64,000 nt of DNA from an uncultured Alphaproteobacteria bacterium (GCA_951812775.1 OX638326.1:2241391-2305390), one strand, 5' to 3'. Positions 5,885 through 26,573 are shown, counted from the first letter of the stretch. Notes: generated from the letters alone by a model not told the origin. A program made the numbers and translations.

Positions 5885-5917
5885 GTTCTCGATCCTCTTC
5901 TTAAGAGTTAAACGACG

Positions 5918-8328: not shown

Positions 8329-8359
8329 GGAATTTCTCGCTCAATTTAACGAAGAAAAA

Positions 8360-8379
8360 TGGTGGTATACCACATACCA
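8360..8379. promoter_or_regulatory. putative GntR/FadR-type operator palindrome (tGGTATACCa) in the divergent oxc / TRAP intergenic region
   Basis: Perfect palindrome TGGTATACCA fits the FadR-family consensus t.GT.N.AC.a. It lies between the divergently transcribed gntR-oxc-frc operon and the TRAP operon. Confidence 0.35.
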
Positions 8380-8407
8380 TAGGAAATCAGCCCATAGGAA
8401 ATCAGCC
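8378..8407. repeat. perfect 15-bp tandem duplication (cataggaaatcagcc x2) in the intergenic region
   Basis: Direct reading of the sequence. Confidence 0.6.
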
Positions 8408-8570
8408 TTCGTCACGCCTAATCGAAGCAATTATGCTGGTTCACCAGTTGAAATTTTTGTGAGATAAAAATCGAGATCAGTGCGTTTCAGCCAAGAAGCT
8501 GATTGTCGGCCTAACCAAGAGTTACTAAGCTTCCAATCCTGTAGTTACAAACCAACTTGGGGGAGACATT

Positions 8571-9557
8571 ATGAAACGCCTATTAACGGGAGTCGCTGTC
8601 GCCGGAATGGTGATCGGCGGACTTTCAGTTGCCGCCAACGCAGCAACGATCAAAATTTTGGCCAGCTGGAACAAAAACGTTTGGCCGACCTATGTGGTGC
8701 TCGACAGCTTTGTAAAGAACGTTAAAAAGCTGGGTGGCGATAAAATCAAAATTCGGATCAGTGGCCCAGAAGTGGTCCCTGGTTTCCAGCAGCTACAACC
8801 GGTTAAAGCAGGCGTTTTCGATATCCTGTTTACCCATGGTGTCTATCACATGGGATCCAAGGGACTGGCCGCCATTATGGATGCCATGAACTCTGACCCG
8901 GTCGGCAAACGGACATCGGGCGTTTGGGATCACCTCGACAAATTCTATCAGAAAACCCATGGGCTGAAGTTGCTGGCCATTTCACCCAACAGCACCAAGG
9001 GCTACCACATTTTCCTCAAGAAACCGCTATCGGGTAAAGGCGATTGGAAAGGCCGTAAAATCCGTGGCACGCAGACCTATCACGGTGTGATCCGTCTGTT
9101 CGGCGGCGAACCGGTTGTGATGCCTGGCTCGCAGGTTTATTCCGCATTGGAGAAAGGCGTTGTTGATGGCGCAGCATGGCCAGCCGCGGGCATGCTTAGC
9201 ATGAAGCATTTCGAAGTAGCCAAGTACAAGGTTCGCCCAACTTTCGGCACCTCAACTTTGCCCTTCCTTATGAATCTCAAAAGCTTCAACAAGCTGAGCA
9301 AGGAAAAGCAGAACATCCTGCTGCAAGCCGGTTACATGACCGAGCTTGAAATGCCTTGGGTTGGTGATCAGGTACAGGCGAAGGAAGATGCCGAACTTGC
9401 CAAAAAAGGCGTCAAGATTACCAAACTGCCTGCCGACCAGGTGGCCAAGATGCGTAAGGCTTTCTCGGAAAGCATCTGGGCTCTGGGCGCGAAGTGCTGT
9501 GGCGCAGACGCCAAGAAGCTTCGTGAACTCGCCGAAAAGGCTGGTCTATCCTGGTAA
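8571..9557 (+). CDS. dctP: TRAP transporter solute-binding protein, DctP family
   Basis: Signal peptide, DctP-like length (328 aa), followed by DctQ and DctM genes. Confidence 0.75.
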   Translation: MKRLLTGVAVAGMVIGGLSVAANAATIKILASWNKNVWPTYVVLDSFVKNVKKLGGDKIKIRISGPEVVPGFQQLQPVKAGVFDILFTHGVYHMGSKGLAAIMDAMNSDPVGKRTSGVWDHLDKFYQKTHGLKLLAISPNSTKGYHIFLKKPLSGKGDWKGRKIRGTQTYHGVIRLFGGEPVVMPGSQVYSALEKGVVDGAAWPAAGMLSMKHFEVAKYKVRPTFGTSTLPFLMNLKSFNKLSKEKQNILLQAGYMTELEMPWVGDQVQAKEDAELAKKGVKITKLPADQVAKMRKAFSESIWALGAKCCGADAKKLRELAEKAGLSW

Positions 9558-9583
9558 AATAGATCGATGAAATTGAGACGGGC

Positions 9584-9612
9584 CACGGGACATTCAGTCT
9601 CGTGGTTCTCTC
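9584..9612 (+). terminator. intercistronic hairpin (ccacgggac/gtctcgtgg) followed by a T-rich tract between dctP and dctQ; possible attenuator
   Basis: 9-bp stem with one mismatch and a 5-nt loop, then ttctctcttatttc. Flanked by 14-bp direct repeats gatcgatgaaattg at 9563..9576 and 9623..9636. Confidence 0.35.
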
Positions 9613-9629
9613 TTATTTCTGATTGATCG

Positions 9630-10151
9630 ATGAAATTGTACCGGACATTTGAACGCGGTCATGACTGGCTGACAGTCGCGGGGTATTACCTCGCCTGCAT
9701 CGCTCTATCGATAATTTTCGGCGCCTATATTATCGAGGTTTTCGCCCGCTATTTCTTTAATGCGCCACAATGGTGGGCCAGCGAGGCCGTGTCCTACTCG
9801 CTATGCGCCTGCACCTTCCTGATGATGCCCTACGTTACCTGGAAAAAAGGGCACGTCGCCGTCGCTCTGATTTTTGACCTGTTGCCAACAAATGGCGCGC
9901 GCGTTGCCATATGGTTGACCTATCTGCTCGGAACGCTTTTCTGCGGGTTTGCAACCTGGATTTCCATGGATGAAACCGCGCGGCAATTCATCAGCAATAT
10001 TGATCTCATGGCAGTCAAACCGGTTCCTAAATATTTGATTTCAATTTTCATTCCATTTGGTTTTGCAAGCTCAACTTTGCACTTCATGCGTCTTCTCGAT
10101 TTTAAGGCGATTGACCCTGATGCCTCCGCCGGCGGCTTTGGTGAGAGCTGA
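9630..10151 (+). CDS. dctQ: TRAP transporter small permease, DctQ family
   Basis: 173-aa protein with four TM segments, between dctP and dctM. Confidence 0.75.
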   Translation: MKLYRTFERGHDWLTVAGYYLACIALSIIFGAYIIEVFARYFFNAPQWWASEAVSYSLCACTFLMMPYVTWKKGHVAVALIFDLLPTNGARVAIWLTYLLGTLFCGFATWISMDETARQFISNIDLMAVKPVPKYLISIFIPFGFASSTLHFMRLLDFKAIDPDASAGGFGES

Positions 10152-10154
10152 TCG

Positions 10155-11465
10155 ATGGGTTGGGAAGCCACATTAATCACCGCATTGCTGCTTCTCCTGG
10201 CCGCTTTTATGTCGGGTGCGCCGCTCTTTGTTGCTTTCCTGGCGATCAACCTCACCGGCGTTGCCATTTTTCTTGGCCCTGCCGGGTTTGGCATGGTCGC
10301 CAACTCAATTTTCGACACCACGAACAATGCCGACATGGCGACAATTCCGCTCTTTATTCTGATGGCCGAGGTGCTGTTTCGCTCCGGCACTGTCGACATC
10401 CTGTTCGATGCTGTCGATAAGTTGATCGGCCGTATGAAAGGTCGTCAGTATGTTCTGACAATCTCTCTTTCCACGGTGTTTGGGGCTTTGTCAGGCGCCG
10501 GAATGGCGGTGGCTGCCATGCTGGCCCGGACCATTTTTCCAACCATGCGCAATCGCGGATACGACTCCAAACTTGCCATCGGGAATATTCTCGCCGGTGC
10601 CAGCCTAGCGCCGATTATTCCGCCGAGCGTCCTGGCCATTGTCATTGGGACACTTTCCAACACATCGATTGCCGGCCTGCTGATCGGCGGCATCATTCCC
10701 GGTCTGATGCTTTCCGCAATGTTCCTGACCTATACGATGGTGCGCGTAAAACTGAATCCTTCGCTCGCACCTGACGATAGTGACGATGAAACCCCAAAAA
10801 TTTCGGCCGGAGAGAAGCTGCGGGCGCTCGCGGGCTGTCTGCCTTTCGCCCTGATCATCTTTTCGGTCATGGGATTTATCATGTTCGGCATCGCGACACC
10901 TTCCGAGGCAGCGGCAACAGGTGTACTCGCGGCGATTATCACAGCCGCGTATTATCGAAAGTTGAGCTGGAAGATGATCACCGAGTCGCTCGGCACGGCA
11001 GCTTTCATCACCAGTATGATCCTGCTCATTATGGCGAGTTCGCGGATGTTTAGTCAGTTGCTGGCTTTCACTGGCGCGACAACCGAACTTACAAACCTGA
11101 TCGTCAACCTTGGTTGGCATCCGATGCTGATGTTATTCATCATGATGGCGATCCCGTTCATCCTTTGCATGTTTATCGATCAGATTGCCTTGATGCTTGT
11201 GGTCATTCCGATCTATCAGCCATTGCTGACGACCCTCGGATTCGATCCGATTTGGTTCTGGCTCATCATGCTGTTGAATGTAACGGTCGGCGGTATTTCG
11301 CCGCCCTTTGGCTATGTAATATTCGCCTTCCAGGGTGCAGCAGATAAAGTTCAAATTGCCGAAGTCTTTAAGGCATCCTGGCCATTTGTCGTGTTGTTTC
11401 TTCTGGGCATGGTGGTGCTGGCCGCCTTCCCGTCGCTGGTCACCTTCCTGCCAGGGCTGATATAA
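10155..11465 (+). CDS. dctM: TRAP transporter large permease, DctM family
   Basis: 436-aa polytopic permease. Start lies 4 nt after the dctQ stop. Confidence 0.8.
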   Translation: MGWEATLITALLLLLAAFMSGAPLFVAFLAINLTGVAIFLGPAGFGMVANSIFDTTNNADMATIPLFILMAEVLFRSGTVDILFDAVDKLIGRMKGRQYVLTISLSTVFGALSGAGMAVAAMLARTIFPTMRNRGYDSKLAIGNILAGASLAPIIPPSVLAIVIGTLSNTSIAGLLIGGIIPGLMLSAMFLTYTMVRVKLNPSLAPDDSDDETPKISAGEKLRALAGCLPFALIIFSVMGFIMFGIATPSEAAATGVLAAIITAAYYRKLSWKMITESLGTAAFITSMILLIMASSRMFSQLLAFTGATTELTNLIVNLGWHPMLMLFIMMAIPFILCMFIDQIALMLVVIPIYQPLLTTLGFDPIWFWLIMLLNVTVGGISPPFGYVIFAFQGAADKVQIAEVFKASWPFVVLFLLGMVVLAAFPSLVTFLPGLI

Positions 11466-11481
11466 CCCAATAGCTGGGATG

Positions 11482-12075
11482 CTATTTAACAGCCTCAAGA
11501 TTGAGGCTCATCAGGCGACCACTCTCTTTGTCCATATGCGGTAAGTGCGCTTGTGAGTAATCGTCCACATCCGCATGTTCCGTATTCTGCCAGTCCCAAC
11601 GGTGCACATCCGAAAACCCTGCCTGCAGCAACAAACCCGACAAGAGTGGCGCATCGAAAATCATGTGATGGAAATCGGTTTCGTCTCACTGGCCACCGCA
11701 AACAAGGCCGACCAGGCCGGATAAGCCATCCTTAAGGCCTTGCTCATAATAGATCGCGGCACAGGCTGCAAAATCGGGAACCGCCAGACGCAGGACGCCG
11801 CCGGGCTGAAGCACACGGCACCATTCCTGCAGCACATCAACAATTTGAAACCGGCCAAAATGTTCCAACACGTGGCAGGCATAGATCAACTCGACTGTAT
11901 CGTCTGCGACAAAAGTTAACTTATCGACGGAACAAAGTTGATCGACATGCGGATAGGGCTGAATATCGACATGATAAAAGCCCGGGATGAACTTTCCACC
12001 GCATCCGAGATGTAGCCGTTTCATATTGGGCGTTACGTCGACAATGTTATTTGACCGCGGCAACGAGTCAGCCAT
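11482..12075 (-). pseudogene. class I SAM-dependent methyltransferase (type 11-like) with an in-frame TGA at 11686..11688
   Basis: The two ORFs 11686..12075 and 11482..11664 share one frame and are separated only by TGA (...LVCGGQ*DETDFHHMIFDAPLL...). Together they give a ~197-aa methyltransferase-sized product. Confidence 0.55.
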
Positions 12076-13796
12076 GCGGATTTACCTCTTTACACCAATG
12101 ACACCACATATGCCTGATAGCATCTTCCATCGCCGTAACAAATCTCTTTTGATCCGCTAAGGGAGACGCAGCTGCCCGCTGGCGCAATGATTTGCGGTAA
12201 GTCGCAATTTGCTCCGGCGCCTTAGCCAAAGCCTTCGCTAACTCTAAATATTGCTGTTCATCCGCAGCCACTAATCCATCATGACCAATTGTATTTAAAA
12301 TGCCGGTCGCCATACGCGACACATATCGATCACCAGCAATCGTGATGGTTGGCACCCCCATCCACAAGGCCTCACAAACGGTCGTCGCACCCGAATAGGG
12401 GAAACTGTCGAGCATGATGTCGATCTTTCCGAACAGAGAGAGATGGCCTTGCTTGTCAGAAAGGTGATCAAACAGATCCAGACGCTCTTCCCCAATATTT
12501 TTGTCGGCAAAGATTGAAAGAACACGCTGACGAAGTTGAGGATCTCTCAGCCCCCGCCCTTTGATCACCATTCGGGAATTTGGCACGACCGTCAGGATAT
12601 TTGCCCAACACCTCAAAAGACGGTCATTTATTTTACTGAGATTATTTAGCGATCCGAACGTGACGAAGCCGTTTTCCTCAATAGGGGCTGAATCTGGTAA
12701 CGGCATTTGATCTTCCGGCGCATAGCAAAATAACGACTCCGGCAAATGGAGAAGCTTCTCGTTGTAATGTGCGTCATGTTCCGGAGGATCTATCTGTTTG
12801 TCCGTGATCCGCCAATCTAAGGCATCCATACCCGTTGACCCACCATATCCCAGCCAGCTCTCCTGAACCGGTGCAGGGCGTTCTGCAAAGGCCAGCAACC
12901 GGTTTCCCGCCGTATGGCCGGCAACATCTATAAGAACATCTGTGCGGTCTCGCCGAATTTGCGCCGCCAGTTGATCGTCAGCCATGCCAAACGTACGACA
13001 CCAATGGTCAGAGTTCTGTTCGAACCAATTTGTCTGGCCATCGATACGCGCAACTTCCGCATAGGAGAAAATTTCAACCTTTTGCCGATCATGTTCCGCG
13101 TAAAGTGGTGTCAGAAATCGACCGACCGCATGATCGTGGAAATCGGGCGATACATACCCAACCCGCAAGCGACGATCTTTTGACGGTTCGTTTGGGTGAG
13201 AAAAACCCTTCTGCAGTCGAGGCAGCGCATGTCGCTTATTCCAGCTCCGGGCCTCCGCCAAGATGCTTAGCGGCGACACCTCCGGCTCCAACGCAATCAC
13301 CCGACGAAAGGCATTTATGGCATCGATAGGACGCCCATGAGCGCGGAAAAGATTTCCAAGATTATTCCAGGCGGCCGGCATATTGGGATTGAGGTCGAGC
13401 GCCGTTCGAAAAGCTATTTCAGCCTCGAAGAATTGCCCTTGCGCTTCCAGAACGCCGCCGAGTGTCACTTGGGAAATCGCGTGACAATTGTCGATCGATA
13501 TGGCTTCGCGGCAAATGCGCTCCGCTTCTTCGATCTTGCCCTGCATCGCCAGCACATTTGCGAGATTATTTCGAGCCGAGACCTCTTTGGGAGCAATGGA
13601 TACCGCTTCGCGGAAGATTGCTGCCGCCTCATCAAACTGCGCCTGTAGATACAGGCCCGTGCCGAGATTGTTGTAAGCATCAAAATATTGCGGCTCGATA
13701 TCAATCGCCCGGCGAAATGCCGCCTCTGCCTCTACGGACTGACCATTTCTATTCAGGGCAATACCAAGATTATTGTGCGCTACAGCATAGTCAGGC

Positions 13797-15088
13797 GGGC
13801 GCCTCTAAAAACCTCGTCATTTTGGCCATGATCTGCTTCACTTCTCTCATCGGCTTGATGGAGGATGGAATGTCGGATCAGCCCGGTTTTTTCGATCTTG
13901 ATGAGCGTTACGCGGCGCTGTCGGCGGCGGGTGATCCGTTGCTTCGGCTTGGTGAGTTGGTCGATTTCGAGTTGTTTCGCCGGCCCTTGATCCGGGCGCT
14001 ACGTCGCTCGGACCGGCGCCAGGGTGGCCGGCCTCCCTATGACCCCGTTCTGATGTTCAAGATCCTGGTGTTGCAGGCACTATACAATCTCTCGGATGAT
14101 CAAACCGAGTTCCAGATCCGCGACCGGCTGTCTTTCATGCGGTTCCTGGGCCTGGGGCTTCACGCCCGGGTGCCGGACGCCAAGACGATCTGGCTGTTCC
14201 GTGAGTTGCTGGTGCAGGCCAAGGCGATCGAGGCGTTGTTCGATCGCTTCGACGAACACCTGCGCGGCCATGGCTACCTGGCGCTGTCGGGCCAGATCGT
14301 CGATGCCACGATCGTCGCGGCGCCCAGGCAGCGCAACAGCGTTCCGGAGAAGGTGGCGTTGAAGGCCGGCAAGGTGCCAGAGGAGTGGAAGGACAAGCCG
14401 GCCAAGCTGGCCCAGAAAGACCGGGATGCGCGCTGGACCATGAAGCGTGGCCGAGTGAAGCGTCTGGAGGATGGGCACCCCAAGGGGCCGGAGATCATGG
14501 TGCCGGCGTTTGGCTACAAGAACCACATCTCCACGGACCGGCGGCACGGGTTGATCCGCAAGTGGCGCGTCACCGATGCCGCCGCCAATGACGGCCGCCA
14601 GCTCGCCGGTCTGATCGATCCGGAGAACACGGCGAGCCCGGTCTGGGCGGATACCGCCTATCGGTCCAAGCGTAACGAGAAGATGCTGGCGCGCCAAGGC
14701 AAGCGCTCCCAGATCCACTTCCGCAAGCCGCGCGGCAAGCCGATGCCGGCGACCCTGGCCAAGGCCAACGCGGCGCGCTCGGCGGTACGCTCCGCCGTCG
14801 AGCATGTCTTCGCCCATCAGAAAGGCTTGATGGCGCTCTCGGTTCGGACCATCGGCATCGCCCGGGCCGAGGCCAAGATCGGCATGACCAATCTGGCGTA
14901 TAACATGCGCCGTTTCCTCTGGCTCCAGGGGCGAAGTGCGCCCACATGACGCCGGAACGGCCGGTTCGACCGGCTAAACCGATCAAATCGACGCAAAACG
15001 GCTCGAAAAACCGACACTCAGACGCGCCCACCCGGTCAAATCACGCCGCAAGCGGCCAAACCGAACGTTCTTCGAGGTGTCCAGGCAC
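13797..15088 (+). mobile_element. IS5-family insertion sequence (boundaries approximate)
   Basis: Contains a DDE transposase with the YNLSD motif. The host TPR gene is split exactly here. The ends begin GGGCGC.../...GCGCCC (imperfect inverted repeats). Exact termini and target-site duplication could not be fixed by eye. Confidence 0.65.
13858..14949 (+). CDS. IS5-family DDE transposase
   Basis: ...YDPVLMFKILVLQALYNLSDDQTEFQIRDRLSFMRFLGL... resembles IS5 InsH-type transposases. 363 aa counted from the ATG at 13858. Confidence 0.8.
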   Translation: MEDGMSDQPGFFDLDERYAALSAAGDPLLRLGELVDFELFRRPLIRALRRSDRRQGGRPPYDPVLMFKILVLQALYNLSDDQTEFQIRDRLSFMRFLGLGLHARVPDAKTIWLFRELLVQAKAIEALFDRFDEHLRGHGYLALSGQIVDATIVAAPRQRNSVPEKVALKAGKVPEEWKDKPAKLAQKDRDARWTMKRGRVKRLEDGHPKGPEIMVPAFGYKNHISTDRRHGLIRKWRVTDAAANDGRQLAGLIDPENTASPVWADTAYRSKRNEKMLARQGKRSQIHFRKPRGKPMPATLAKANAARSAVRSAVEHVFAHQKGLMALSVRTIGIARAEAKIGMTNLAYNMRRFLWLQGRSAPT

Positions 15089-15585
15089 GTACTTTACAGC
15101 CTTTTGGTAGGCTTTAATCACGCCGTCGAAATCTTCGATCTGGCGCAAAATATTTCCATAATTGTTGTGATATATCGCGTTGGCCGGATCCAGTGACAGA
15201 GATCGCGCGACGAGCGCCAGAGCCTTTTCTGTTTGCCCCATGTCGCCAGCGATAATGCCGAGAAAGTTGAGCGCATCTGGAAGGTCTGGATATCGATCCA
15301 GCACCGATTGATAAAGACCCGCGGCCCGCGTCAGATCACCAGCTTGATGGAAACCAACGGCGGTCTCCATATCCCGCATGACATCGGATGTAAGATTGGC
15401 GGCAGCAGTTAGGGCTACGCCCTGTTTACGAGCTTTTTTAGTAGTTTTCGCAGATTGGCGGCGCTGAGCGCGATTCATGTACGGGTCCCCAAAGCCGTTA
15501 AACAGCGGCGATGGGGTTACCCTAAGAGCAATCCGTTAAGGCGCGCTTAACCATAGAGGTCCAAAGAGAACCTCGGAAATCAGGC

Positions 15586-17073
15586 TTAGGCGCTTGCAGC
15601 GGCTCCGGCAGAGGTTCCGGCGAGTTTGCCAAAGACTGACCCTGCCGTGAGGCCTGATCCACCGGGATAGTTGAAGTAGAACAACCCACCAACGCACTCG
15701 CCTGCAGCATAAAGGCCTTCCATCGGCATTAAATCAGTGTCGACGACCTGCCCCTCGGTATTGATGCGCAGCCCGCCAAACGTGAACGTCACACCGCATG
15801 TGACCTGATAGGCCTCAAAGGGTGCGGTATCAATTGTCTGTGCCCAGTTTGATTTATTGATCTCAAGACCTTCCGTGCAACGTCCATCTTTGACGTTCGG
15901 ATTATATTCAATGTCCTGATTGACCGCTGCATTGTACTCTTTGATTTCCTGGAGGAAGGCTTCCTTATCGACACCTTCCAGTTTGTCAGCCAGGTCCTCG
16001 ATCATATCAGCCGTAACTTTAGTAACCTGGCGGATCGAATATTCGTCACGCTTGAGATGCGCCACTTTGGCATCAAGAACCTGCCAGGCGAACTGCGCCG
16101 GCTGCTCAAGAATAACACGACCATATTTTGCATAAGTGTAGTTCCGGAAATCCGCCCCTTCATCGACAAAACGTTTGCCGGTCGCGTTGACCATGATGAA
16201 GAACGGATAGGAGTGCTTCTGGAACTGATCACCAACAGCGAGGTCGCCAAATTCCGGTGCGTTGCGATCCCAGCCCACAGCGTGACAGCCTGACCAGTTA
16301 CCATATGTCGCCGCACCGATATCTGTCGCCATACGAATGCCGTCACCGGTGTTAAAGCGTGTGCCCCGAATTTTTGCCAGATCCCAGCCCGGACCAAGAT
16401 AGCGAGTCCGCCATTCAGGGTTTGCCTGGAAGCCGCCGGACGCCATAACAACCGATTTACAGCTCAGCTCTTTGACTTCATTGCCCTGCTTGATCCGAAC
16501 ACCGCAGACCTTTGCACCATCGAACACCAGGCTCATCGCCCGGGTCTCGAACATGGTCTCAATGCCATCTCTCTTGGTAATCTCTTGTTGGGCTTCATAC
16601 AGACCTGGGCCACCGCCGTTGGTTTCAACCGTCAGACCACCCCAAAACTTGAACTTGCCATCGATCTTAAAGGCCTGCCGTCCATAGATAGGCACGAACC
16701 GGATACCCTTTTCACGCATCCAAGTCAGTGTTTCGAGGCTGCGGGTAACAAGAGTTTCTGCCATATCCGGGTCCGTACGGAACTGGGTGACACGGAAAAT
16801 GTCATCGAAGAACTGATCCTGCGTATAGGTACCGAAATCTGTATCTTCGATTTCCTGGTCGGAAAGCTCTACAAGCTTCTGGATATCTTCGACACCATCG
16901 TAAACCACGCGCATCGCACCAGCGGTAAAGCGTGTATTGCCGCCAGCTTCATCTTCCGGCGCGCGTTCCAGCATGACGATTTTTTTGGCGCCAGCATCCT
17001 GGGCCGCCATTGCTGCACATGCTGCCGCGTTGCCCGCGCCAACGACAATTACATCATAATCCGTATCAGCCAT
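15586..17073 (-). CDS. FAD-dependent oxidoreductase, TcuA (tricarballylate dehydrogenase)-like / fumarate reductase flavoprotein family
   Basis: N-terminal DVIVVGAGNAAACAAMAA FAD-binding fold. Landmarks IRGTRFN, GVTFTFGGL and AAGE..GG match the TcuA family. 495 aa. Confidence 0.6.
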   Translation of the reverse strand: MADTDYDVIVVGAGNAAACAAMAAQDAGAKKIVMLERAPEDEAGGNTRFTAGAMRVVYDGVEDIQKLVELSDQEIEDTDFGTYTQDQFFDDIFRVTQFRTDPDMAETLVTRSLETLTWMREKGIRFVPIYGRQAFKIDGKFKFWGGLTVETNGGGPGLYEAQQEITKRDGIETMFETRAMSLVFDGAKVCGVRIKQGNEVKELSCKSVVMASGGFQANPEWRTRYLGPGWDLAKIRGTRFNTGDGIRMATDIGAATYGNWSGCHAVGWDRNAPEFGDLAVGDQFQKHSYPFFIMVNATGKRFVDEGADFRNYTYAKYGRVILEQPAQFAWQVLDAKVAHLKRDEYSIRQVTKVTADMIEDLADKLEGVDKEAFLQEIKEYNAAVNQDIEYNPNVKDGRCTEGLEINKSNWAQTIDTAPFEAYQVTCGVTFTFGGLRINTEGQVVDTDLMPMEGLYAAGECVGGLFYFNYPGGSGLTAGSVFGKLAGTSAGAAASA

Positions 17074-17154
17074 TTATTCGTGTTCCTCTGATCTCACCGG
17101 TCAAAATTATGACGTGGATATACCGGCTAACGCCCGCCGCGACAAGGGCGCGCC

Positions 17155-18255
17155 CTAAGAGTTGCAGGCGTTGGCAGTACGGGCTTTCTTTTCGGCGGTG
17201 GCGCCCGAATAGGCGTTCAACTCTGTTCTGGCGCGTGCTTCGGCGAGACGCGTGACCGGTTGGTTTTGCAGATTAGCCAACAGCCAATCGACGTCACTTG
17301 TCACATCCCCCCTGCCATCGATCCGCTGCGTCGATGTTGCCACGAGTTTTTCCGGTTTGAGCTGACCTAAAATAAATCGAAATGCATAGTTTGGCGTTAG
17401 CCCCATACGAAGGTCTGCAACGCTCACCTCATCGCCATTAACGATAATTCTGTAATAACCACGGCTAAACTTGGCGACCTTGGAAATTCGGCTGGCGAAA
17501 GGAGGACAGCTTTCAAATTTCAGATGTCGTGGATAAGCATAAAAAGTTGCCGTTTCTGGCCCGCCAAATATCGGCATATAGAGATTAAAGTAACGATCAC
17601 CATCGATACCGACGATGCGCCAAAAGAAAGAATTAAAAGGTGTCGGAATGGCCAATATCCTGTCCGGAGATATTTTCTTGTCGGCCAACAAGCTATTGGC
17701 GCGCTGCGTCATGACGAATTGTGCAATAGCAGTCCATCCAAGATAGACCGTCGTAAAACTAAGGCACACGACCTGCGTTTTCCGGAAACGATCCGACATA
17801 TTTCGTAGAAAAAAAGCCCAAACCATCACAACGAGAAGCGGCAATGTATACAGAGGGTCGATGATAAAGATTGATCCGAGGGCGACGGGGTCCGTCGAGA
17901 ATGGCCAGAATAGTCGCGTTCCATAGACCGTGATTGCATCCAGCAATGCGTGCGTGGTTAAACACAAAAACACCGCCGCCCAGATTTGGAAGGGCTGATC
18001 CCGCAGTCCCTTGAACATGCGGCGGATCACCTCGCCAAATACCGGAGTCAAAGCCGCGTGGACAAAAAGCGAATGGGTCCAGCCACGATGCTGGACAAAG
18101 GCCTCGATCGGATCATCGGGCGCAATAAAGACATCGAGATCAGGTAAAGTGCCCAACACACCACCAGTGAGCGCCGCCCGTCTGGGGCCAATTTTTCGAC
18201 CGAGAACCGCAACCCCGACACAGGCTCCCAGTGTAAATTGCGTAACACTATCCAT
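17155..18255 (-). CDS. membrane-bound metal-dependent hydrolase (DUF457/YdjM-like) with a C-terminal extension
   Basis: N-terminal His-rich TM region typical of DUF457 (..HRGWTHSLF..). 366 aa. Confidence 0.5.
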   Translation of the reverse strand: MDSVTQFTLGACVGVAVLGRKIGPRRAALTGGVLGTLPDLDVFIAPDDPIEAFVQHRGWTHSLFVHAALTPVFGEVIRRMFKGLRDQPFQIWAAVFLCLTTHALLDAITVYGTRLFWPFSTDPVALGSIFIIDPLYTLPLLVVMVWAFFLRNMSDRFRKTQVVCLSFTTVYLGWTAIAQFVMTQRANSLLADKKISPDRILAIPTPFNSFFWRIVGIDGDRYFNLYMPIFGGPETATFYAYPRHLKFESCPPFASRISKVAKFSRGYYRIIVNGDEVSVADLRMGLTPNYAFRFILGQLKPEKLVATSTQRIDGRGDVTSDVDWLLANLQNQPVTRLAEARARTELNAYSGATAEKKARTANACNS

Positions 18256-18311
18256 GACTGACTACTTCAATAACAACACTGACCGCTTATACGCTTGCTA
18301 ACCAACAACAG

Positions 18312-19220
18312 CTAGTCGTCGCTCGCGGCGGCGTTCCGCAAAACATCTGCGGCGATATTACTCAATGCAAGCGCTGACGGGCTGAGTGTCCGCCCGATAG
18401 GCCTGATAATCCCTATTGTCCGACTCACCACAGGATCGACGAGAGGCCGAAAAACCAGCTTAAGGTCCGGACGCTGCACTGTTGCCAGTTTGGGAACCGC
18501 TGAAACGCCCAACCCGTTTCCAACCATGCTCATTAACGTCGAAATATGGGCGACTTCATGGGTTCCCGCTGGCAACAGACCACTTTCCCCAAGGGCGCTT
18601 TCAAGCTTTCGCTGATTGCCAGCTTCCGCCCCCATTCGAATATATGTGTGTTTGCGAAGATCGGTCCAGGTAACACGCCGCTTCCGGGCCAGCGGATGGT
18701 CCTCCCGACAGGCGAGAAGGTAAGGGTCATCTATCAAAGGCTGATATTCTAAGTTGGGACGGTCTTCAGCCGCTAGGGCGATTGCAAATTCGGCATCCCC
18801 GGTCGTCACAAAATCCGCAACCTTTGGACCAACATCATCCATTACCCGCACGGAGACCGACGGAAATTGTTCGTTAAACTGCGCAATAACCCGCGGCAGC
18901 ACATTCTGGGCAATTGTCAGGACCGACGCCATAGTTACAACACCCGCCCGTTTTTCGATGATATCCTGAATATCGTCCATCGAGCGTTCAAATTCCCGGA
19001 CCATTCGCATGGCGGTCGGCAGAAACTCTTCGCCAATTGTTGTGAGCGCGACCGTCCGTGAGGTGCGGTCGAGCAACCTCACATGGAGGACGTCTTCCAT
19101 TTTCTTAAGACGTCGCGAGAGGCCAGATTGGGTAATCGCCAACTCTTCCGCTGCGCGATGAAAATTTTTTATCTCGGCGACCAGTACAAAGGCGCGCAAA
19201 TCTTCAATGCCTATTCTCAT
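18312..19220 (-). CDS. LysR-family transcriptional regulator
   Basis: N-terminal HTH (IKNFHRAAEELAITQSGLSRRLKKME) plus LysR substrate-binding domain. Divergent from the PrpF-like gene. Confidence 0.8.
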   Translation of the reverse strand: MRIGIEDLRAFVLVAEIKNFHRAAEELAITQSGLSRRLKKMEDVLHVRLLDRTSRTVALTTIGEEFLPTAMRMVREFERSMDDIQDIIEKRAGVVTMASVLTIAQNVLPRVIAQFNEQFPSVSVRVMDDVGPKVADFVTTGDAEFAIALAAEDRPNLEYQPLIDDPYLLACREDHPLARKRRVTWTDLRKHTYIRMGAEAGNQRKLESALGESGLLPAGTHEVAHISTLMSMVGNGLGVSAVPKLATVQRPDLKLVFRPLVDPVVSRTIGIIRPIGRTLSPSALALSNIAADVLRNAAASDD

Positions 19221-19230
19221 GGCCTTTATA

Positions 19231-19251
19231 TTGATAATTTAATTGCATCAA
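19231..19251. promoter_or_regulatory. LysR-type T-N11-A box (TTGAT-N11-ATCAA) in the divergent promoter region
   Basis: Palindrome ttgataatttaattgcatcaa lies between the LysR gene and the prpF-like gene. Confidence 0.45.
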
Positions 19252-19329
19252 ACAAGTATTTTAATGCGCTTTACTTTTCACCTACCTTCGACGAGAGTCC
19301 GTCTATCAAACTGGTGGAGAGTAAATTCG

Positions 19330-20396
19330 TGAAAGCGATCCCAAGCGTTATGATGCGTGGCGGCACCTCGCGCGGTCTTTATTTTCGGCGTGAAGATTTG
19401 CCCGCAGATCAAGACGGAATCGCGGAAATACTGCTCTCCGCGATGGGATCGTATGACCCGACGCAGATCGACGGTGTCGGAGGCGCCACCAGCCTTACCA
19501 GTAAGGTCGCGATTGTCGGCCCCTCCCCGGAAACGGACATTGATATCGATTATCTGTTCGCCCAGGTCGGCACTCGCGACCCTATTGTTGATTTCGCCCC
19601 TACCTGCGGCAACATGCTTGCTGGCGTTGGTCCATTCGCCATCGAGTCAGGCATGATCGCGGCAATGGACGAGGAGACGACAATCCGAATTCGGTCGGTC
19701 AATACAGGCGCCATTATCGAAGCTCGCATTCAGACGCCAAACAATCAAGTAACTTATGAAGGTGACACCGCGATTGACGGTGTTCCGGGAACTGCCGCTC
19801 CGGTCATTCTCAATTTTTGTGACGCGATTGGCTCCAAAACAGGCGCCCTTTTTCCCACTGGCAAACATAGCGAAATCATTGATGGTGTCGAGGTGAGTCT
19901 GGTTGACGCAACGATGCCCGCGATGATTCTGCGTGCCCAGGATATTGGGAAAACAGGTTACGAGACAGCCCGTGAACTGGACGAAGATCGGATGACCTTC
20001 GCGCGGCTTGAAAGCATGCGTCGGGAAGCGGGGATACGGATGGGTCTGAATGACGTTTCTGAAAGCGTTGTCCCAAAAATTATGCTAGTCGCGCCGCCAC
20101 GGAATGGCGGCACTGTAACATCACGCTATCTGGTACCGGACCGGACCCATGCAGCACATGCCGTAACGGGTGCCGTCACGCTGACGCATTGCGTTGCGAC
20201 ATCCGGCACAGTCACAGAGTCTGTCATCGAAGCACCATTGGCTTTACCGGCGGAGATACAAATCGAACATCCGTCTGGTGTGCTTGGCATTCTCTTGAAC
20301 AAAAGCACAGCAGGCGTCATCCGGACAGCGCGCCGACTGTTTGCCGGTGAGGTCTATGTTCAAGATCGATTGACTCCAAGGCGCAAAGCAGCGTAA
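19330..20396 (+). CDS. PrpF/AcnD-accessory family isomerase (2-methylaconitate isomerase / 4-oxalomesaconate tautomerase family)
   Basis: VKAIPSVMMRGGTSRGLYF N-terminus is typical of the PrpF family. GGAGAG ribosome-binding site precedes the GTG at 19330. Confidence 0.65.
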
Positions 20397-20456
20397 CGAA
20401 ACAGGCAGTATTTTTAAGTAAATTACAAAACAGAAGGGATGAAGAGGAATTCTCAT

Positions 20457-21548
20457 ATGATAAAAACTTCAATTTCAGTTCTGGCAGCAGCAGGATTTGT
20501 TGCCACCACATTTGGGACGACGGCGCCAGCTGTTGCCCAGGACGTCGATTTCGCTGGCAAGCGAATTGAATGGGTCATTCCCTATGGTACGGGTGGTGGC
20601 TCAAACCGCTGGGCACGTTTCTATGTGCCATGGCTGCAGAAAGCATTACCGGGCAACCCAACCGTTGCGGTTAAAAACATGCCGGGCGCCAGCTCGACAA
20701 AGGGCACCAACTATTTCGCCCGCCGTGGCACCAAAGACGGTCTGTCGATTCTCGGCACCTCGGGATCTACGCAGTTCCCGTTCCTGCTCGGTGACCGCCG
20801 GGTGAAATACAATTACGCGGATTGGGAAGTCATTTTGGCCACACCTGTCGGCGGCGTTGTCTATGTGAACAAAAGCCTCGGCGTAAAATCCGCAGCCGAT
20901 ATGAAAAAGCTGCAGAAAGCCAAGCTGAAATTTGGTTCGCAGGGTCCGACGTCTCTTGATCTCGTTCCATTGCTCGCCTTTGACATTCTCGGTCTGAACG
21001 TCAAGCCGGTCTTTGGCATGAAAGGTCGTGGTCCATCCCGTTTAGCATTCGAACGTGGCGAAGTCCGGATTGACTATCAAACGACGCCGGCCTTCCTGAA
21101 ACGCGTCACACCTTTGGTCAAAAAGGGCATTGCTGTGCCGATCATGACCTGGGGAACGCTCGACGATGCCGGCAAGCTGGTACGTGATCCCACTTTCCCG
21201 AACCTGCCGCATGTAGGCGAAGTCTACAAAATGATGCACGGCAAGGCTCCTAAGGGTCCGGCCTGGACTGCCTGGAAAGCCTTCATGGCTGCTGGCTTCC
21301 CTGCTCAGAAGATGATCTTCGTTAAAAAAGGAACACCGAAGAACATCGTCGCCGCGTGGCGCGCAACTGCTGCAAAGGCTGTTGCAATGCCTGGCTTTGA
21401 AGCTGCCAAGAACAAAAAGCTCGGTAAGTATCCGCAAGCTGTTGGCAAGAAAGCCCAGGTCCTGAAGAAGGTCGCAACCAACGTACCACCCGCTGCCAAG
21501 AAGTGGGTCCTCGACTGGTTGAAGAGCCGTTACAACAAGGTACCGTAA
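20457..21548 (+). CDS. periplasmic solute-binding protein, putative TTT-system TctC/Bug-like partner of the downstream TctA
   Basis: Signal peptide (MIKTSISVLAAAGFVATTFG), Lys-rich C-terminal tail, sits immediately upstream of the TctA-like permease. Sequence similarity to canonical TctC is weak. Confidence 0.4.
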   Translation: MIKTSISVLAAAGFVATTFGTTAPAVAQDVDFAGKRIEWVIPYGTGGGSNRWARFYVPWLQKALPGNPTVAVKNMPGASSTKGTNYFARRGTKDGLSILGTSGSTQFPFLLGDRRVKYNYADWEVILATPVGGVVYVNKSLGVKSAADMKKLQKAKLKFGSQGPTSLDLVPLLAFDILGLNVKPVFGMKGRGPSRLAFERGEVRIDYQTTPAFLKRVTPLVKKGIAVPIMTWGTLDDAGKLVRDPTFPNLPHVGEVYKMMHGKAPKGPAWTAWKAFMAAGFPAQKMIFVKKGTPKNIVAAWRATAAKAVAMPGFEAAKNKKLGKYPQAVGKKAQVLKKVATNVPPAAKKWVLDWLKSRYNKVP

Positions 21549-21647
21549 CGCGTTAGACTGTTAGCGAATGAGGGGCGGAGAGAGACTTACCTTTCTCCGC
21601 CCTTTTTCGTACGCTGTATCTAGATTGGGAAATTTAGGGGCACCGGA

Positions 21648-23627
21648 ATGATTGAATCCATGATCTCCGCTTTTGCGGAAATAACCAGCGGCGCACATCT
21701 GTTGTACCTGCTTGGTGGCGTCATAATGGGGCTGGTCGTCGGCATCTTCCCCGGCCTCGGTGGGATCGTTGGTCTGTCCCTGCTGCTGCCCTTCCTCTAC
21801 GGCATGGACCCAACCTCCGCGCTGGCCATGCTGATCGGACTGGTCGCCATTATTCCGACATCCGATACCTTTACCTCTGTCCTCATGGGTATTCCGGGCT
21901 CGAGCGCCTCACAAGCGACAGTGCTCGACGGATTCCCTCTCGCCAAAAAAGGGGAAGCCGCGCGCGCTCTAGGCGCTGCCTTCTCAGCGTCACTCTATGG
22001 CGGTGTCATTGGCGCCATCGTGCTCACTTTCTTTATCGTTGTCGCCCGCCCCATCATTCTGCTTTTCACATCAGCTGAACTCTTCATGCTGACGATCCTC
22101 GGCCTGTCGATGGTAGGCGTGTTGGCTGGTAACTGTCTGTCAAAAGGTCTGCTCGCCTGCGGGCTGGGGCTGATGTTTGGCGCACTTGGCGGCGCTCCGG
22201 CGACCGGTGAATTCCGCATGTCATTTGATAGCGCCTATCTTGGCGATGGGTTGCCGCTGGTGGTCGTCGGTCTCGCCATGTTTGCAGTGCCGGAAATTAT
22301 TGATCTGTTACGTAGCGGCGGGGCGATCTCAAAGAGCGCCAGCCTGGGCTCCGGCTGGACGCGGGGTTTCAAGGATATGTGGGCCTATCGTTGGCTCTGC
22401 ACGCGCTGCGCCGGTATCGGCTGTATCATTGGCGCCCTGCCCGGCCTTGGCGGCAGCGTTGTCGACTGGATTGCCTATGGCCATGTCAAACAGGTCGCCA
22501 AGGATTCATCGCAATTCGGCAAGGGCGATATACGCGGCGTCCTCGCACCGGAATCTGCCAACAATGCTAAAGAGGGTGGTGGACTCATCCCCACCCTGCT
22601 CTTCGCCATTCCGGGTTCAGGCAGCATGGCCGTCTTCCTTGGCGGCATGGAACTGATTGGGCTGGAACCCGGCCCCAGCATGGTCGATGGCAAGCTCAAC
22701 CTGACCTATGTCATTATCTGGTCTCTCGCCCTGGCCAATGTTATTGGCGCCGGCTGCTGCCTGCTCATTTCACGCAATGTCGCACAGCTCACCACCATCA
22801 AATATGTCTATCTTGCCCCGTTCATGGTCATGGTCATCTGTTTTGCCGCTTTCCAGGCGACACGCGATCTCGGTGATCTCCTCGCTCTATTCGGGGTCGG
22901 ACTCATCGGCATTATGTTCAAACGGTTTGGCTGGCCACGCCCGGCCTTCCTGATTGGCTTTGTTTTAGCGGACAACTCCGAGACCTATCTGTATCAGGCG
23001 GTTCAGTTCTATGACTGGGGATTCCTGTTACGCCCGGGTGTCATCATCATTTTTGTCCTGACGCTTATCTCAATCTGGTTTGGCGCGCGCAACGCCCCGA
23101 CCGGCGAAGCAGAAATGGCGGAAGATAGCAAACCCAAACCAACCAACATGAAGCCACAAGCCTGGTTTGCAGGATTTGTTGTCTTCCTGTTCACCTGGGG
23201 CCTTATCGATGGCATCCAGCATTCCTTCCTGGGCGCGGTCTATCCCGTTGGGATATGTCTGGTCATGTTGCCGATTGCCATTCATTTATTTTACATCACC
23301 GCGAAGAACAAAACGCAGCACGCCGCCAATTATGACTATGAGGTCGAAGGCGACCATGCCGGACAGGAAGGCATCCCCAGTCTTGTCTACTACCTTACCT
23401 GGCTTGCCGGCTTTATCGCCGCCGTCATGCTGGTCGGGTTCTGGCTCGCCATCACCGGATTTTTCCTGATCTTCCTGCGGGTGCATTCCGATGCTTCCTG
23501 GACCCGAATTGTCACCATGACGACATGCGGTGTTGGCTTTATCACCGGGCTCTCCTGGATCATGGTCCTCAATTTTCCGGGCGGGCTGCTCCAGCATTAT
23601 TTCAAACTCCCCTGGCCATTGAGCTAA
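21648..23627 (+). CDS. tripartite tricarboxylate transporter permease TctA with a C-terminal TctB-like four-TM extension (putative TctA-TctB fusion)
   Basis: TctA/DUF112 landmarks (GLLPGLG-like, FGKGDIRGVLAPESANNA). 659 aa against about 500 for TctA. The last ~165 aa form four hydrophobic helices resembling TctB. Confidence 0.65.
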   Translation: MIESMISAFAEITSGAHLLYLLGGVIMGLVVGIFPGLGGIVGLSLLLPFLYGMDPTSALAMLIGLVAIIPTSDTFTSVLMGIPGSSASQATVLDGFPLAKKGEAARALGAAFSASLYGGVIGAIVLTFFIVVARPIILLFTSAELFMLTILGLSMVGVLAGNCLSKGLLACGLGLMFGALGGAPATGEFRMSFDSAYLGDGLPLVVVGLAMFAVPEIIDLLRSGGAISKSASLGSGWTRGFKDMWAYRWLCTRCAGIGCIIGALPGLGGSVVDWIAYGHVKQVAKDSSQFGKGDIRGVLAPESANNAKEGGGLIPTLLFAIPGSGSMAVFLGGMELIGLEPGPSMVDGKLNLTYVIIWSLALANVIGAGCCLLISRNVAQLTTIKYVYLAPFMVMVICFAAFQATRDLGDLLALFGVGLIGIMFKRFGWPRPAFLIGFVLADNSETYLYQAVQFYDWGFLLRPGVIIIFVLTLISIWFGARNAPTGEAEMAEDSKPKPTNMKPQAWFAGFVVFLFTWGLIDGIQHSFLGAVYPVGICLVMLPIAIHLFYITAKNKTQHAANYDYEVEGDHAGQEGIPSLVYYLTWLAGFIAAVMLVGFWLAITGFFLIFLRVHSDASWTRIVTMTTCGVGFITGLSWIMVLNFPGGLLQHYFKLPWPLS

Positions 23628-23650
23628 GGGCCAATTCGTAAAGAGAGTAC

Positions 23651-24688
23651 ATGACCAACAATAAGAAGATGCAGTTTGGGCTTGCCATTCGCGGGCAGTA
23701 TGCAGCCGATCAGAATATCGAGAAATGTTTTGAGGAGCTGATCGCCGAATGCAAAGCCGCCGAAGATCTTGGTTTTGATTCCATAACCAAGACGTCACAT
23801 TACAGCACCGCCCCCTTTCAGGCTTTTCAGCAACTCCCGATCCTTGCGCGCTTAAGCGCCGAGACAAATCGCGTGCGGCTCAACGCAGGAATCATTCTTC
23901 TTTCACTTCACAAACCCCTCGACATCGCCGAGCAACTGGCAACCATCGACATCATGTCCGGCGGACGGGTGATTTGCGGTATCGCGCTCGGCTACCGGGA
24001 CGTGGAGTTCGCCGCCTTTGGCAGTGAGGTCAAAAAACGTGGCAAACTGCTGGAAGAAAATCTCATTGCCTTGAAGCGTCTCTGGACTGAAGACAGCGTC
24101 ACAATGGAAGCCAGTCATTTCGAGCTTAAGGAAGCCTCCTGCTGCCCCAAACCGCTGCAACGTCCTCACCCGCCGATCTGGATTGGCGCGAATGCCAACC
24201 CGGCGATCAGGCGTGCGGCCCGGCTTGGCGATTGCTGGTACATCAATCCGCACAACAAGATCAGTGATATTGAAAAACAGATCAATGTCTATAAACGGGC
24301 ACTCGATGAATGCGGCAAACCCTTCCCCGATGAACTGCCCATGCGCCGTGAAGTATTTGTCGCAGAAACACGCGAAGAGGCGCTGCGGCTGGCGGGGCCC
24401 TATATCACAAAAAAATATGACGCCTATCAGAACTGGGGCCAGGGGAAACAACTTCCCGAAGGCGACCAGAATTTAGCGCTGGCTTTTGACGAGCTTGCTG
24501 GCGACCGGTTTATCATTGGCTCACCCGATGACGTCACCGAGCAGATCGTCAACCTCAACAAGACCGTCGGCATGAACCATCTGATAATGTCTGTGCAGTG
24601 GGCCGACATGCCCCATTCCCTGACCATGGACACCCTCGCCATCCTCGGCGAGAAGGTCTTCCCGCAAGTGCAGCAGGCGTTGGATTAA
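23651..24688 (+). CDS. LLM-class (luciferase-like) flavin-dependent oxidoreductase
   Basis: 345 aa, bacterial luciferase-like TIM-barrel sequence pattern. Confidence 0.65.
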   Translation: MTNNKKMQFGLAIRGQYAADQNIEKCFEELIAECKAAEDLGFDSITKTSHYSTAPFQAFQQLPILARLSAETNRVRLNAGIILLSLHKPLDIAEQLATIDIMSGGRVICGIALGYRDVEFAAFGSEVKKRGKLLEENLIALKRLWTEDSVTMEASHFELKEASCCPKPLQRPHPPIWIGANANPAIRRAARLGDCWYINPHNKISDIEKQINVYKRALDECGKPFPDELPMRREVFVAETREEALRLAGPYITKKYDAYQNWGQGKQLPEGDQNLALAFDELAGDRFIIGSPDDVTEQIVNLNKTVGMNHLIMSVQWADMPHSLTMDTLAILGEKVFPQVQQALD

Positions 24689-24760
24689 GATCTGATCTCA
24701 TCAACGAGAAAAAATTTCGACCAATATACGATACCGCTAACCTTCAAGCGCTCTGGCAAC

Positions 24761-25516
24761 TCAATTTGAAACCTTTTTCGCCACGTAATACCCGTAGCTG
24801 AAAAATGCTGAAAATCGTTCGTATAAACTAATTTCCTGTTTTTCGGCCGCAACGATTGCCTGTGCAGGTTCGGAATTATCATTGCGTGAAAGGAACTCGG
24901 TAAATCGCGCCTGCATCGGATGGTAATAGTTTTCCAGCCAACACCGTTTGGAAAGCGGAAAATACCCGATGGCCGAATAGCCATTTTTTTCGAGGATCGC
25001 CAATTTTTCCGACGCCAAAGCGACTTCAGAATATTCCTGCATCCAATATTGTTCGAGCTCCTTAGGACGCTCGTTCGTCAGCCAGGTTAGCTCTGACACA
25101 GCGAGAATACCGCCCGGCTTCAAAAAACGGCGCCATGCCTTAACACCATTCTCAAAGCCCATATTGTAGATCGCGCCTTCAGACCAAATCGCATCCAGCG
25201 ACTGCTCCTCAAAGGGCAACGTTTCCATGGATGCCTCCAATGTCGATACAGGCTCAGCGAGCCCCTTACTCTCCGCAGTGACCTTTAATCGTTCAAGAAA
25301 CGGCGGCAAAAAATCGACGGCTGTAACGTTCGCATCAAGTTCTTCTGCAAGAACGAGTGTCGACGCGCCTGTCCCACAGCCTATATCGGCAACTTTTAAA
25401 TCTTTCATGCCTTTAAGACCGGATAACAAAACAGAAAAACGTGTCTCGTCATTACCGCTTGGTCCCTGGCGGTCCGCTTCCAGATGTAGATCAATGAGTA
25501 GTTCGAGATCATCCAT
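24761..25516 (-). CDS. class I SAM-dependent methyltransferase
   Basis: VADIGCGTGASTLVLAEE motif I. Confidence 0.7.
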   Translation of the reverse strand: MDDLELLIDLHLEADRQGPSGNDETRFSVLLSGLKGMKDLKVADIGCGTGASTLVLAEELDANVTAVDFLPPFLERLKVTAESKGLAEPVSTLEASMETLPFEEQSLDAIWSEGAIYNMGFENGVKAWRRFLKPGGILAVSELTWLTNERPKELEQYWMQEYSEVALASEKLAILEKNGYSAIGYFPLSKRCWLENYYHPMQARFTEFLSRNDNSEPAQAIVAAEKQEISLYERFSAFFSYGYYVAKKVSN

Positions 25517-25550
25517 TTGGAAACGGGGTTATAAAAGGTGCCAACAGCGT

Positions 25551-26573
25551 TTAGCCACACTCCGCCACTATATCCCGACGGAGCATACGGCGGGCGGCGA
25601 TGCCGGGGGCATCGACGTTGATATCAACGAGCGCACGCTCCGGTTCGGCATCAAGCATTTTTTGCTGGGCTTCGAGGATGACGACGTCCTCATCGAAGGT
25701 CTGTGACACCATCTTGAAAAGATCGGCAGAGACTTTTTCATCGCCCAATGCAAAGTCGCGGGCGTGCCCGAAAAAATAAAAGGTCGATGTTTCGGTTTCG
25801 GGCGTTGGCGCGTTGAGACTCCGAATGTGCATGCCGCTATCAGGCTCGCCCTGTTCGGGATCGCAGCTGCCGGCATCACACGCGCCGGCGCGTATCTGCG
25901 TCAGACAGGGGGAAAAAGTCTCGACGATCTGCCAGCGGTCTACCGTGCCTGCGAAATTCCCCAACGCCTGAAACATCGGCGGGGCCGGTCGATCAATGAT
26001 CCAGCGGGTCATACGCACCAAATTGTCTTCGCGGTCGGTCTTGATCGGGAACTCGCTGATATCACCGGTGCCGAGCGTATTCAGATGCACATAGGCGAGA
26101 TGCGAGAGATCGAGCAAATTGTCGGTAATCAGCTCGTAATTACAGTCGAGCTTAAGATACTTGCCTTTGACGAGTTCCCATTCCGGATGATCAAACCACC
26201 ACCAGTCGGGGATCAGGCTTTCATCAGCAAGCGCCGGGTCGCCCATCCAGATCCACAGCCATTTCCAGCGCTCGACCAGCGGATAGGACTTTACTGCGGC
26301 GCATGGCGGTATCTTGTCCTGCCCCGGGATTTTCACGCAGGCACCGGACTGATCAAATTCCAGACCGTGATAGCCACATTGCAGGCAATCACCGACAACT
26401 TTTCCCATAGAGAGCGGCAATGCGCGATGACAGCACCGGTCTTCCAGTGCCACTGCTGTGCCATCCTGCTGGCGATACAGGACCACCGGTTCACACAGTA
26501 ACGTCCGGGCCAGCGGCTCCTAGGTTACCTCATGATCCCACGCCGCGACATACCAGCAATTTTTGCGAAACAT
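25551..26573 (-). pseudogene. Rieske [2Fe-2S] non-heme iron oxygenase alpha subunit (VanA-like) with an in-frame TAG at 26520..26522
   Basis: Rieske motif CCHRALPLS...CGYHG. The typical N-terminus MFRKNCWYVAAWDHEVT precedes an amber codon that is in frame with EPLARTLLCEPVVLYRQ... . Confidence 0.6.

Follow-up and report, generated by a model that had tools for sequence, protein, structure and literature searches.

A fused TctA-TctB permease in an uncultured alphaproteobacterium and its possible role in the uptake of trans-aconitate- or tricarballylate-type acids

Tripartite tricarboxylate transporters (TTTs; archetype the citrate transporter TctCBA of Salmonella enterica, TC 2.A.80) comprise a TctC-type binding protein, a large TctA and a small four-helix TctB. 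In slcHFG of Roseovarius nubinhibens, which carries sulfolactate, tctB lies downstream of tctA (PMC5812351), and one TctAB fusion, from Paraburkholderia caribensis, was mentioned as rare by Rosa et al. in 2018 (PMC5812351). Assimilation of trans-aconitate has been proven for the tar genes of Bacillus velezensis, namely tarR (a divergent LysR gene), tarA (a PrpF-superfamily aconitate isomerase) and tarB (an importer), and the authors of that work considered that more trans-aconitate importers have yet to be identified (PMC11495376). The present analysis concerns a locus of marine origin in DNA of an uncultured Alphaproteobacteria bacterium (GCA_951812775.1, OX638326.1:2241391-2305390; this full stretch of 64,000 nucleotides is referred to as the window), studied over about 15586-24688. 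Its central gene (21648-23627, plus strand) encodes a 659-residue permease in which a TctA domain is followed, in the same chain, by a TctB-like tail. A TctA-TctB fusion is not new in principle, and the locus is an unexceptional representative of a large subfamily of fused TTTs, one that has received little study but is correctly named at the family level in databases. We regard it, with somewhat better than even confidence, as a LysR-controlled module for the uptake and isomerisation of trans-aconitate or tricarballylate-type acids.

The TctA core of the permease, residues 1 to about 481 (21648-23090), matches PF01970 with 385.7 bits (E = 3e-115) over residues 18-435, covering profile positions 1-422 of 423. 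Residues 1-492 align with residues 1-495 of the unfused, 503-residue TctA of Arthrobacter sp. FB24 at 38.7% identity, and because the alignment stops there the TctA part is taken to end at about residue 480-495. An AlphaFold2 (AF2) model (pLDDT 77.8, pTM 0.78) has the final TctA helix at residues 463-481. The linker that follows, residues 482-501 (23091-23150), contains no helix in the model, falls below pLDDT 50 at 485-494 and was found to be hydrophilic in a hydropathy scan. The tail, residues 502-659 with the stop codon (23151-23627), is contiguous with TctA and is modelled as four helices, at 502-523, 527-552, 579-613 (kinked) and 618-638, with block-mean pLDDT mostly between 78 and 95 and one block at 67; the hydropathy scan is consistent with these helices. 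An earlier interpretation made from the DNA alone (the sequence-only reading) had described the permease as a TctA with a C-terminal four-transmembrane segment resembling TctB, fused in A-to-B order, and had proposed that topology, length in relatives and TctB profile matches be compared. The four confident helices agree with that description. Of the 120 best database matches, 117 are 650-679 residues long; those 120 bear only the name 'tripartite tricarboxylate transporter permease'.

Against the TctB model itself the outcome was divided. Scanned by itself, the tail gives a Pfam TctB (PF07331) match with E = 1e-3 to 1e-4 that spans profile positions 5-124 of 137; its score of 19.6-22.5 bits stays under the gathering score of 29.1 and so counts against the assignment. 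The alternative, a C-terminal membrane extension of 160 residues with no relationship to TctB, is nevertheless hardly credible and already largely refuted. Firstly, tails of fused homologues from Paracoccus and Thalassospira score 29.3 and 26.4 bits against PF07331, and Pfam TctB was matched at E <= 0.01 by 12 of 47 fused homologues (best 1.4e-6). Secondly, a profile hidden Markov model (HMM) was built from 47 fused-permease tails and searched against about 7,600 open reading frames (ORFs) of all fetched loci; its top non-fused match was Arthrobacter FB24 TctB (E = 6e-11, 41 bits), nearly all of which it covers (HMM positions 16-163 against residues 23-180), and which itself passes PF07331 at 46.8 bits and is encoded directly after tctA with a 4-nucleotide overlap. 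The tail HMM also matches the divergent tail of a 647-residue Paracoccus permease (E = 1e-7); Salmonella TctB was not detected by it. Thirdly, a split stand-alone form exists. On metagenome contig L089, a TctA C-terminus that shares 51% identity with residues 359-499 of the window permease stops at an in-frame TAG, and a 159-residue TctB-like gene (P0262) comes straight after it. This form was obtained by searching the tail against 1.84 billion cluster representatives, which gave 222 matches, mainly gene fragments; matches are few because members of the fused family fall together in a small number of 50% clusters. These similarities indicate that the tail's link to TctB runs through the lineage with A-to-B gene order and that the fusion arose in that lineage.

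Two details of these sequences were observed in passing. The L089 junction (414-440, ...RKMTPS*MTPQ...) has its stop in frame with 'MTP' on either side, and looks like a short tandem duplication that brought in a stop and a new start. In the loop between tail helices 2 and 3, the motif NYDYE (N-x-D-x-E; residues 561-565, nucleotides about 23328-23342) is invariant in the 47 fused homologues. Its counterpart is F-D-S-E in the stand-alone and split proteins, and in Arthrobacter TctB it reads E-Y-E; the motif may serve as a contact site for a cation or a subunit.

A separate tctB in the operon, named by the sequence-only reading as what would speak against a fusion, was not found. Neither ORF calling nor the tail HMM gave another tctB candidate in the operon or the window, and there is no space for one: just 99 bp separate the binding-protein gene from the permease gene, which is followed after 23 bp by the next gene. 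Foldseek comparison of the permease model with the PDB yielded no match (all E >= 0.01, TM about 0.1). No solved structure was matched by TTT membrane components, by sequence or by fold, and no structure of a tripartite ATP-independent periplasmic (TRAP) transporter was matched by the permease model.

The fused form is common in marine and soil Proteobacteria, is present in other phyla, and is not rare: it was found in at least 588 species-representative genomes, with hosts among Alpha- and Gammaproteobacteria, Desulfobulbaceae, Syntrophobacterales, Binatia, Saprospiraceae and Pelagibacterales. All 53 plasmid matches of the tail lie inside permease genes. A contig index held no exact copy of the 659-residue permease, and a 96% relative was taken in its stead; the nearest genome among the matches listed is a metagenome-assembled genome (MAG) from Fram Strait, 'Alphaproteobacteria bacterium UBA2964', at 94% protein identity.

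The neighbourhood of the fused permease was counted in 80 loci that carry it. A binding-protein gene is directly upstream in 72, a PrpF-like gene is directly adjacent in 55 and lies non-adjacent within 10 kb in 13 more, and a tcuA-type gene is found in 41 (40 of them with tcuB). A TctDE-like two-component system was seen in 42-45, and an isocitrate/isopropylmalate-type dehydrogenase in 17. On a Thalassospira marina plasmid, tcuA, tcuB, a two-component system, the binding protein, the fused permease, an 'OMA tautomerase' (OMA, 4-oxalomesaconate) and a gene of the isocitrate dehydrogenase (IDH) family are found together. Two Pelagibacterales MAGs of SAR11 type (L057 and L084) carry a TcuA-like flavoprotein, an Ldh_2 dehydrogenase, an IDH-like dehydrogenase, a TauD-family dioxygenase, a hydrolase, the binding protein, the fused permease, a PrpF-like enzyme, a short-chain dehydrogenase/reductase (SDR) and two aconitases. 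Because PrpF-like, tcuAB, IDH-like and aconitase genes accompany the transporter, its substrate would be a tricarboxylate of the aconitate/tricarballylate class. The sequence-only reading had named an aconitate or tricarballylate-like acid, and the context of the 80 loci together with the Pelagibacterales aconitases gives this support.

A different carboxylate (a di-acid, hydroxy-acid or amino-acid derivative) may be imported instead, with the flavoprotein and oxidoreductase as unrelated neighbours in a mosaic region. We consider this unlikely, yet it is the stronger of the two competing views of the substrate. The ligands of TTT binding proteins include aspartate, glutamate, malate, adipate, terephthalate and sulfolactate (PMC5812351), and this wide range, also seen among the PDB matches, fits such an import; so do the flanks of the core module, which differ among close relatives, the orphan status of the flavoprotein's nearest relatives and the restriction of the luciferase-like gene to one lineage. 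It is countered by the PrpF-family gene, known members of which all act on tricarboxylates, adjacent to the permease at the frequency given above, and by tcuAB at half of the loci. The breadth of known ligands weighs against a tricarboxylate import module, as does the absence from the window of tcuB and of the TctDE-like system that is typical of the fused family.

The PrpF-family isomerase (19329-20396, plus strand, 355 residues) matches PF04303 with 356.7 bits (E = 1.7e-106) over profile positions 3-370 of 371. Its start is GTG 19329, which has a GGAG motif before it and lines up with the homologues' ATG; ATG 19083, the start of a 437-residue ORF, was ruled out by these two observations. With TIGR02334 (prpF) the protein scores 182 bits, below 440.6, which argues against PrpF proper, and neither acnD nor prpC is in the operon. 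The protein is a candidate aconitate isomerase. A point to the contrary is NF033377 (4-oxalomesaconate tautomerase, GalD), narrowly passed at 460.6 bits with a cut-off of 440. On this basis the PrpF-like enzyme could be a true GalD-like 4-oxalomesaconate tautomerase of aromatic-acid catabolism, the transporter importing a ring-cleavage-derived or methoxy-aromatic acid. Genes for a VanA-type Rieske O-demethylase and an SDR, 2-3 kb downstream, would suit this view. We nonetheless judge it improbable. The margin is just 20 bits, and of two transporter-linked orthologues one lies above the cut-off (445) and one below it (431). A PrpF-domain protein from a Bacillus thuringiensis plasmid scores 418; it is 39.9% identical to the window protein and its gene is followed by a transporter gene, a setting that matches the published layout of tbrA-tbrB (enzyme gene, then transporter gene). 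The NCBIfam name 'OMA tautomerase' is thus marginal for the window protein. No ring-cleavage dioxygenase, hydratase or aldolase was found among the genes scanned at 0-29 kb, related loci hold tcuAB, aconitase and IDH-like genes and not gallate genes, and the VanA-like gene of the window is broken by an in-frame stop.

Divergent from the transport operon is the gene of a LysR-type regulator (18312-19220, minus strand), with HTH_1 and LysR_substrate domains; no specific NCBIfam equivalog was reached by its product. The intergenic region between the LysR and PrpF genes measures 108 bp and contains, at 19231-19251, a dyad TTGAT-N11-ATCAA that is a candidate LysR box, its TGAT...ATCA core and an adjacent block being kept in contigs whose DNA identity is no more than about 78%. 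A scan for promoters and terminators gave a signal no better than chance.

The binding-protein gene (20439-21548, plus strand, 369 residues, with a possible start at Met7, 20457) precedes that of the permease. Its product begins with 33 hydrophobic residues that the model leaves disordered and that finish with AVA-Q. The protein's own sequence gave no Pfam match even at E <= 10 and no NCBIfam match either, a point against the label 'TctC-like' used in the sequence-only reading; the label was borne out by other routes. PF03401 was matched by 28 of 39 homologues (best 9.5e-12), a family profile searched against the PDB found Bug/TctC chains exclusively (best 3.6e-9), and in a Foldseek search with the AF2 model (pLDDT 87.6) the top 17 PDB matches were all TctC/Bug (E = 3.6e-14 to 3e-11, TM 0.70-0.76), after which E-values worsen abruptly by about four orders of magnitude. 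The protein is accordingly assigned as a divergent secreted TctC, through its homologues (family transitivity), the profile search of the PDB and the predicted fold.

The sequence-only reading had also included a TcuA-like FAD flavoprotein (15586-17073, minus strand, 495 residues, FAD_binding_2 PF00890) in the island and had reported TcuB to be missing. The latter was confirmed by tblastn, which found TcuB nowhere in the window. The former holds in part: the protein passes NF006130 'TcuA' (565 bits, cut-off 369) and fails TIGR02485 (242 bits, below 372.6), whereas the TcuB-linked TcuA of Thalassospira marina, 32% identical to it, passes both. Among the 80 loci, 41 have the TcuA type and eight have the window type, the latter never with TcuB, and the two types never occur together. 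The window protein belongs to a sister subfamily of TcuB-linked TcuA. The flavoproteins of the eight loci are 46-67% identical to the window protein, and in several of those loci the flavoprotein gene comes straight after the genes of the transporter and the PrpF-like enzyme and shares their strand, which makes it plausible that the flavoprotein is part of the functional unit. The flavoprotein's link to the transporter is weak because its closest relatives are orphans: a highly abundant group, at 72-74% identity, resembles the window protein more closely than those eight do, and in three complete genomes these relatives are solitary, with no TcuB and no TTT nearby. This weighs against membership in the island, and two related genomes count both against it and against the proposed LysR-controlled module. 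One (L007) is without the 11 kb matching window 8332-19331, which holds the flavoprotein, YdjM and LysR genes; in the other (L006) homology to the window begins only at the binding-protein gene, the upstream region being replaced. A literature search found no relevant publication joining tcuA with tctC, or tricarballylate with TTT. We tentatively suggest, as a possibility that is more doubtful than not, that the flavoprotein is a TcuB-independent tricarballylate dehydrogenase with another electron acceptor, within a widespread marine tricarballylate/trans-aconitate pathway in which the fused TctAB, the long divergent TctC and the PrpF-like enzyme, reaching as far as Pelagibacterales, are joined by TcuAB or by this flavoprotein.

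For the favoured uptake and isomerisation module, the gene architecture, the homologies, the fusion and the conservation of the neighbourhood are established here, and we infer substrate, transport direction, energy coupling, enzyme activities and regulation. The operon runs in the order PrpF-family isomerase, divergent TctC-type binding protein, single-chain TctA-TctB permease and, in this lineage only, luciferase-like oxidoreductase. The periplasmic binding protein would capture a C6 tricarboxylate, which most likely belongs to the trans-aconitate/tricarballylate class, and hand it to the TctA transport domain. The covalently attached TctB part would serve as an accessory or scaffold subunit, present in a constant 1:1 ratio. 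Once in the cytoplasm, the acid would be isomerised by the PrpF-like enzyme to cis-aconitate, which would enter the tricarboxylic acid cycle. The LysR protein would sense the acid and activate the operon from the shared intergenic region. The TcuA-like flavoprotein may oxidise tricarballylate, the saturated analogue, without TcuB, its tie to the operon being weak.

Altogether, ORF calling and domain scans gave seven genes in the region, three on the minus strand and four on the plus strand. All genes named in the sequence-only reading are present where it placed them, and two had been overlooked. The first encodes a luciferase-like (LLM-class) oxidoreductase (23651-24688, plus strand, PF00296); situated 23 bp 3' of the permease, it is probably co-transcribed, and it is lineage-specific, being confined to the nearest relatives (L001-L003 and L006). 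A tie between this gene and the flavoprotein family, considered on account of an LLM gene near two orphan relatives of the flavoprotein, was rejected: the LLM proteins are not orthologous (28% identity over 79 residues). The second encodes a YdjM-family inner-membrane protein (17155-18255, minus strand, 366 residues, PF04307 on residues 1-176), which occurs in none of the 80 related loci and only in near-identical contigs, and is probably unrelated to the transport unit.

Downstream of the luciferase-like gene, within 24689-25559, is a class I S-adenosylmethionine-dependent methyltransferase gene (24761-25516, minus strand), which separates it from the Rieske gene; in L001, L002 and L006 the methyltransferase gene is absent and the luciferase-like and Rieske genes abut. 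The VanA-type gene (25551-26573, minus strand) has its in-frame stop at 26520-26522, where relatives have Gln (...WDHEVT*EPLAR versus ...WDHEVTQSPLAR), and is a probable pseudogene or the result of a sequencing error. Upstream of the region, an insertion sequence element at about 13796-15138 (ORF 13462-14949; DDE_Tnp_1 and DUF772 transposase; GC content 0.60-0.65, that of its surroundings about 0.53) interrupts a TPR/glycosyltransferase-41 gene, the two pieces of which lie at 12068-13555 and 15041-15478; this gene is intact (723 residues) in related contigs. A complete, unfused TRAP transporter (DctP, DctQ, DctM; 8571-11465, plus strand) is encoded 9 kb upstream as a second binding-protein-dependent acid uptake system. 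Genes for a family III CoA-transferase and a thiamine-pyrophosphate enzyme stand side by side at 4634-7630 (minus strand) and resemble a formyl-CoA transferase and oxalyl-CoA decarboxylase pair of oxalate breakdown; they are adjoined by an AMP-binding ligase gene (2904-4544).

What does a natural fusion of this kind offer? A single-chain TctA-TctB fixes a 1:1 stoichiometry and shows that the C-terminus of TctA and the N-terminus of TctB lie on one side of the membrane. Such a permease is a convenient structural and transport target in a family without a solved membrane structure. A fusion described in 2018 as a rare oddity is now seen to be common, and its linkage to tcuAB, PrpF-like and aconitase genes provides a substrate hypothesis for many transporters that bear only a family-level name. 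The fused TTT is a candidate among the missing trans-aconitate importers.

Comparison with known systems places the locus as follows. The Salmonella TcuABC system shares a TcuA-type flavoprotein with the window (NF006130), and related loci have a true tcuA-tcuB beside the same transporter; however, TcuABC includes TcuB and TcuC, neither of which is in the window, and the window flavoprotein fails TIGR02485. The tar system has the same layout as the window, a divergent LysR gene, a PrpF-superfamily enzyme and an importer, and is likened to it by this gene layout; its importer TarB is a single protein of the major facilitator superfamily, whereas that of the window is a binding-protein-dependent TTT. 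Salmonella TctCBA resembles the window system in its three components, and the TctA parts are 30% identical. Its gene order is C-B-A with separate TctB (144 residues) and TctA (504 residues) and regulation by TctDE, in place of the order C-A-B, the fused 659-residue chain and the putative LysR regulation of the window. An analogous fusion of a small and a large subunit is known from the DctQM proteins of TRAP transporters (e.g., SiaQM), which belong to another family without sequence similarity; they are built small-then-large with an extra connecting helix (PMC5812351), unlike the window permease, built large-then-small with a linker of about 20 residues and no extra helix. TctAB of P. caribensis, likened here by its published description, likewise unites both TTT membrane subunits in one protein. 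The A-to-B order of the window is shared by tctA-tctB-tctC on plasmid 2 of Arthrobacter sp. FB24 and by slcHFG of R. nubinhibens (PMC5812351). Of the unfused relatives found, the Arthrobacter TctA is the nearest, and the window tail is homologous to the Arthrobacter TctB; these two are separate polypeptides (503 and 183 residues) with the binding-protein gene last, whereas in the window they are fused and the binding protein is encoded upstream.

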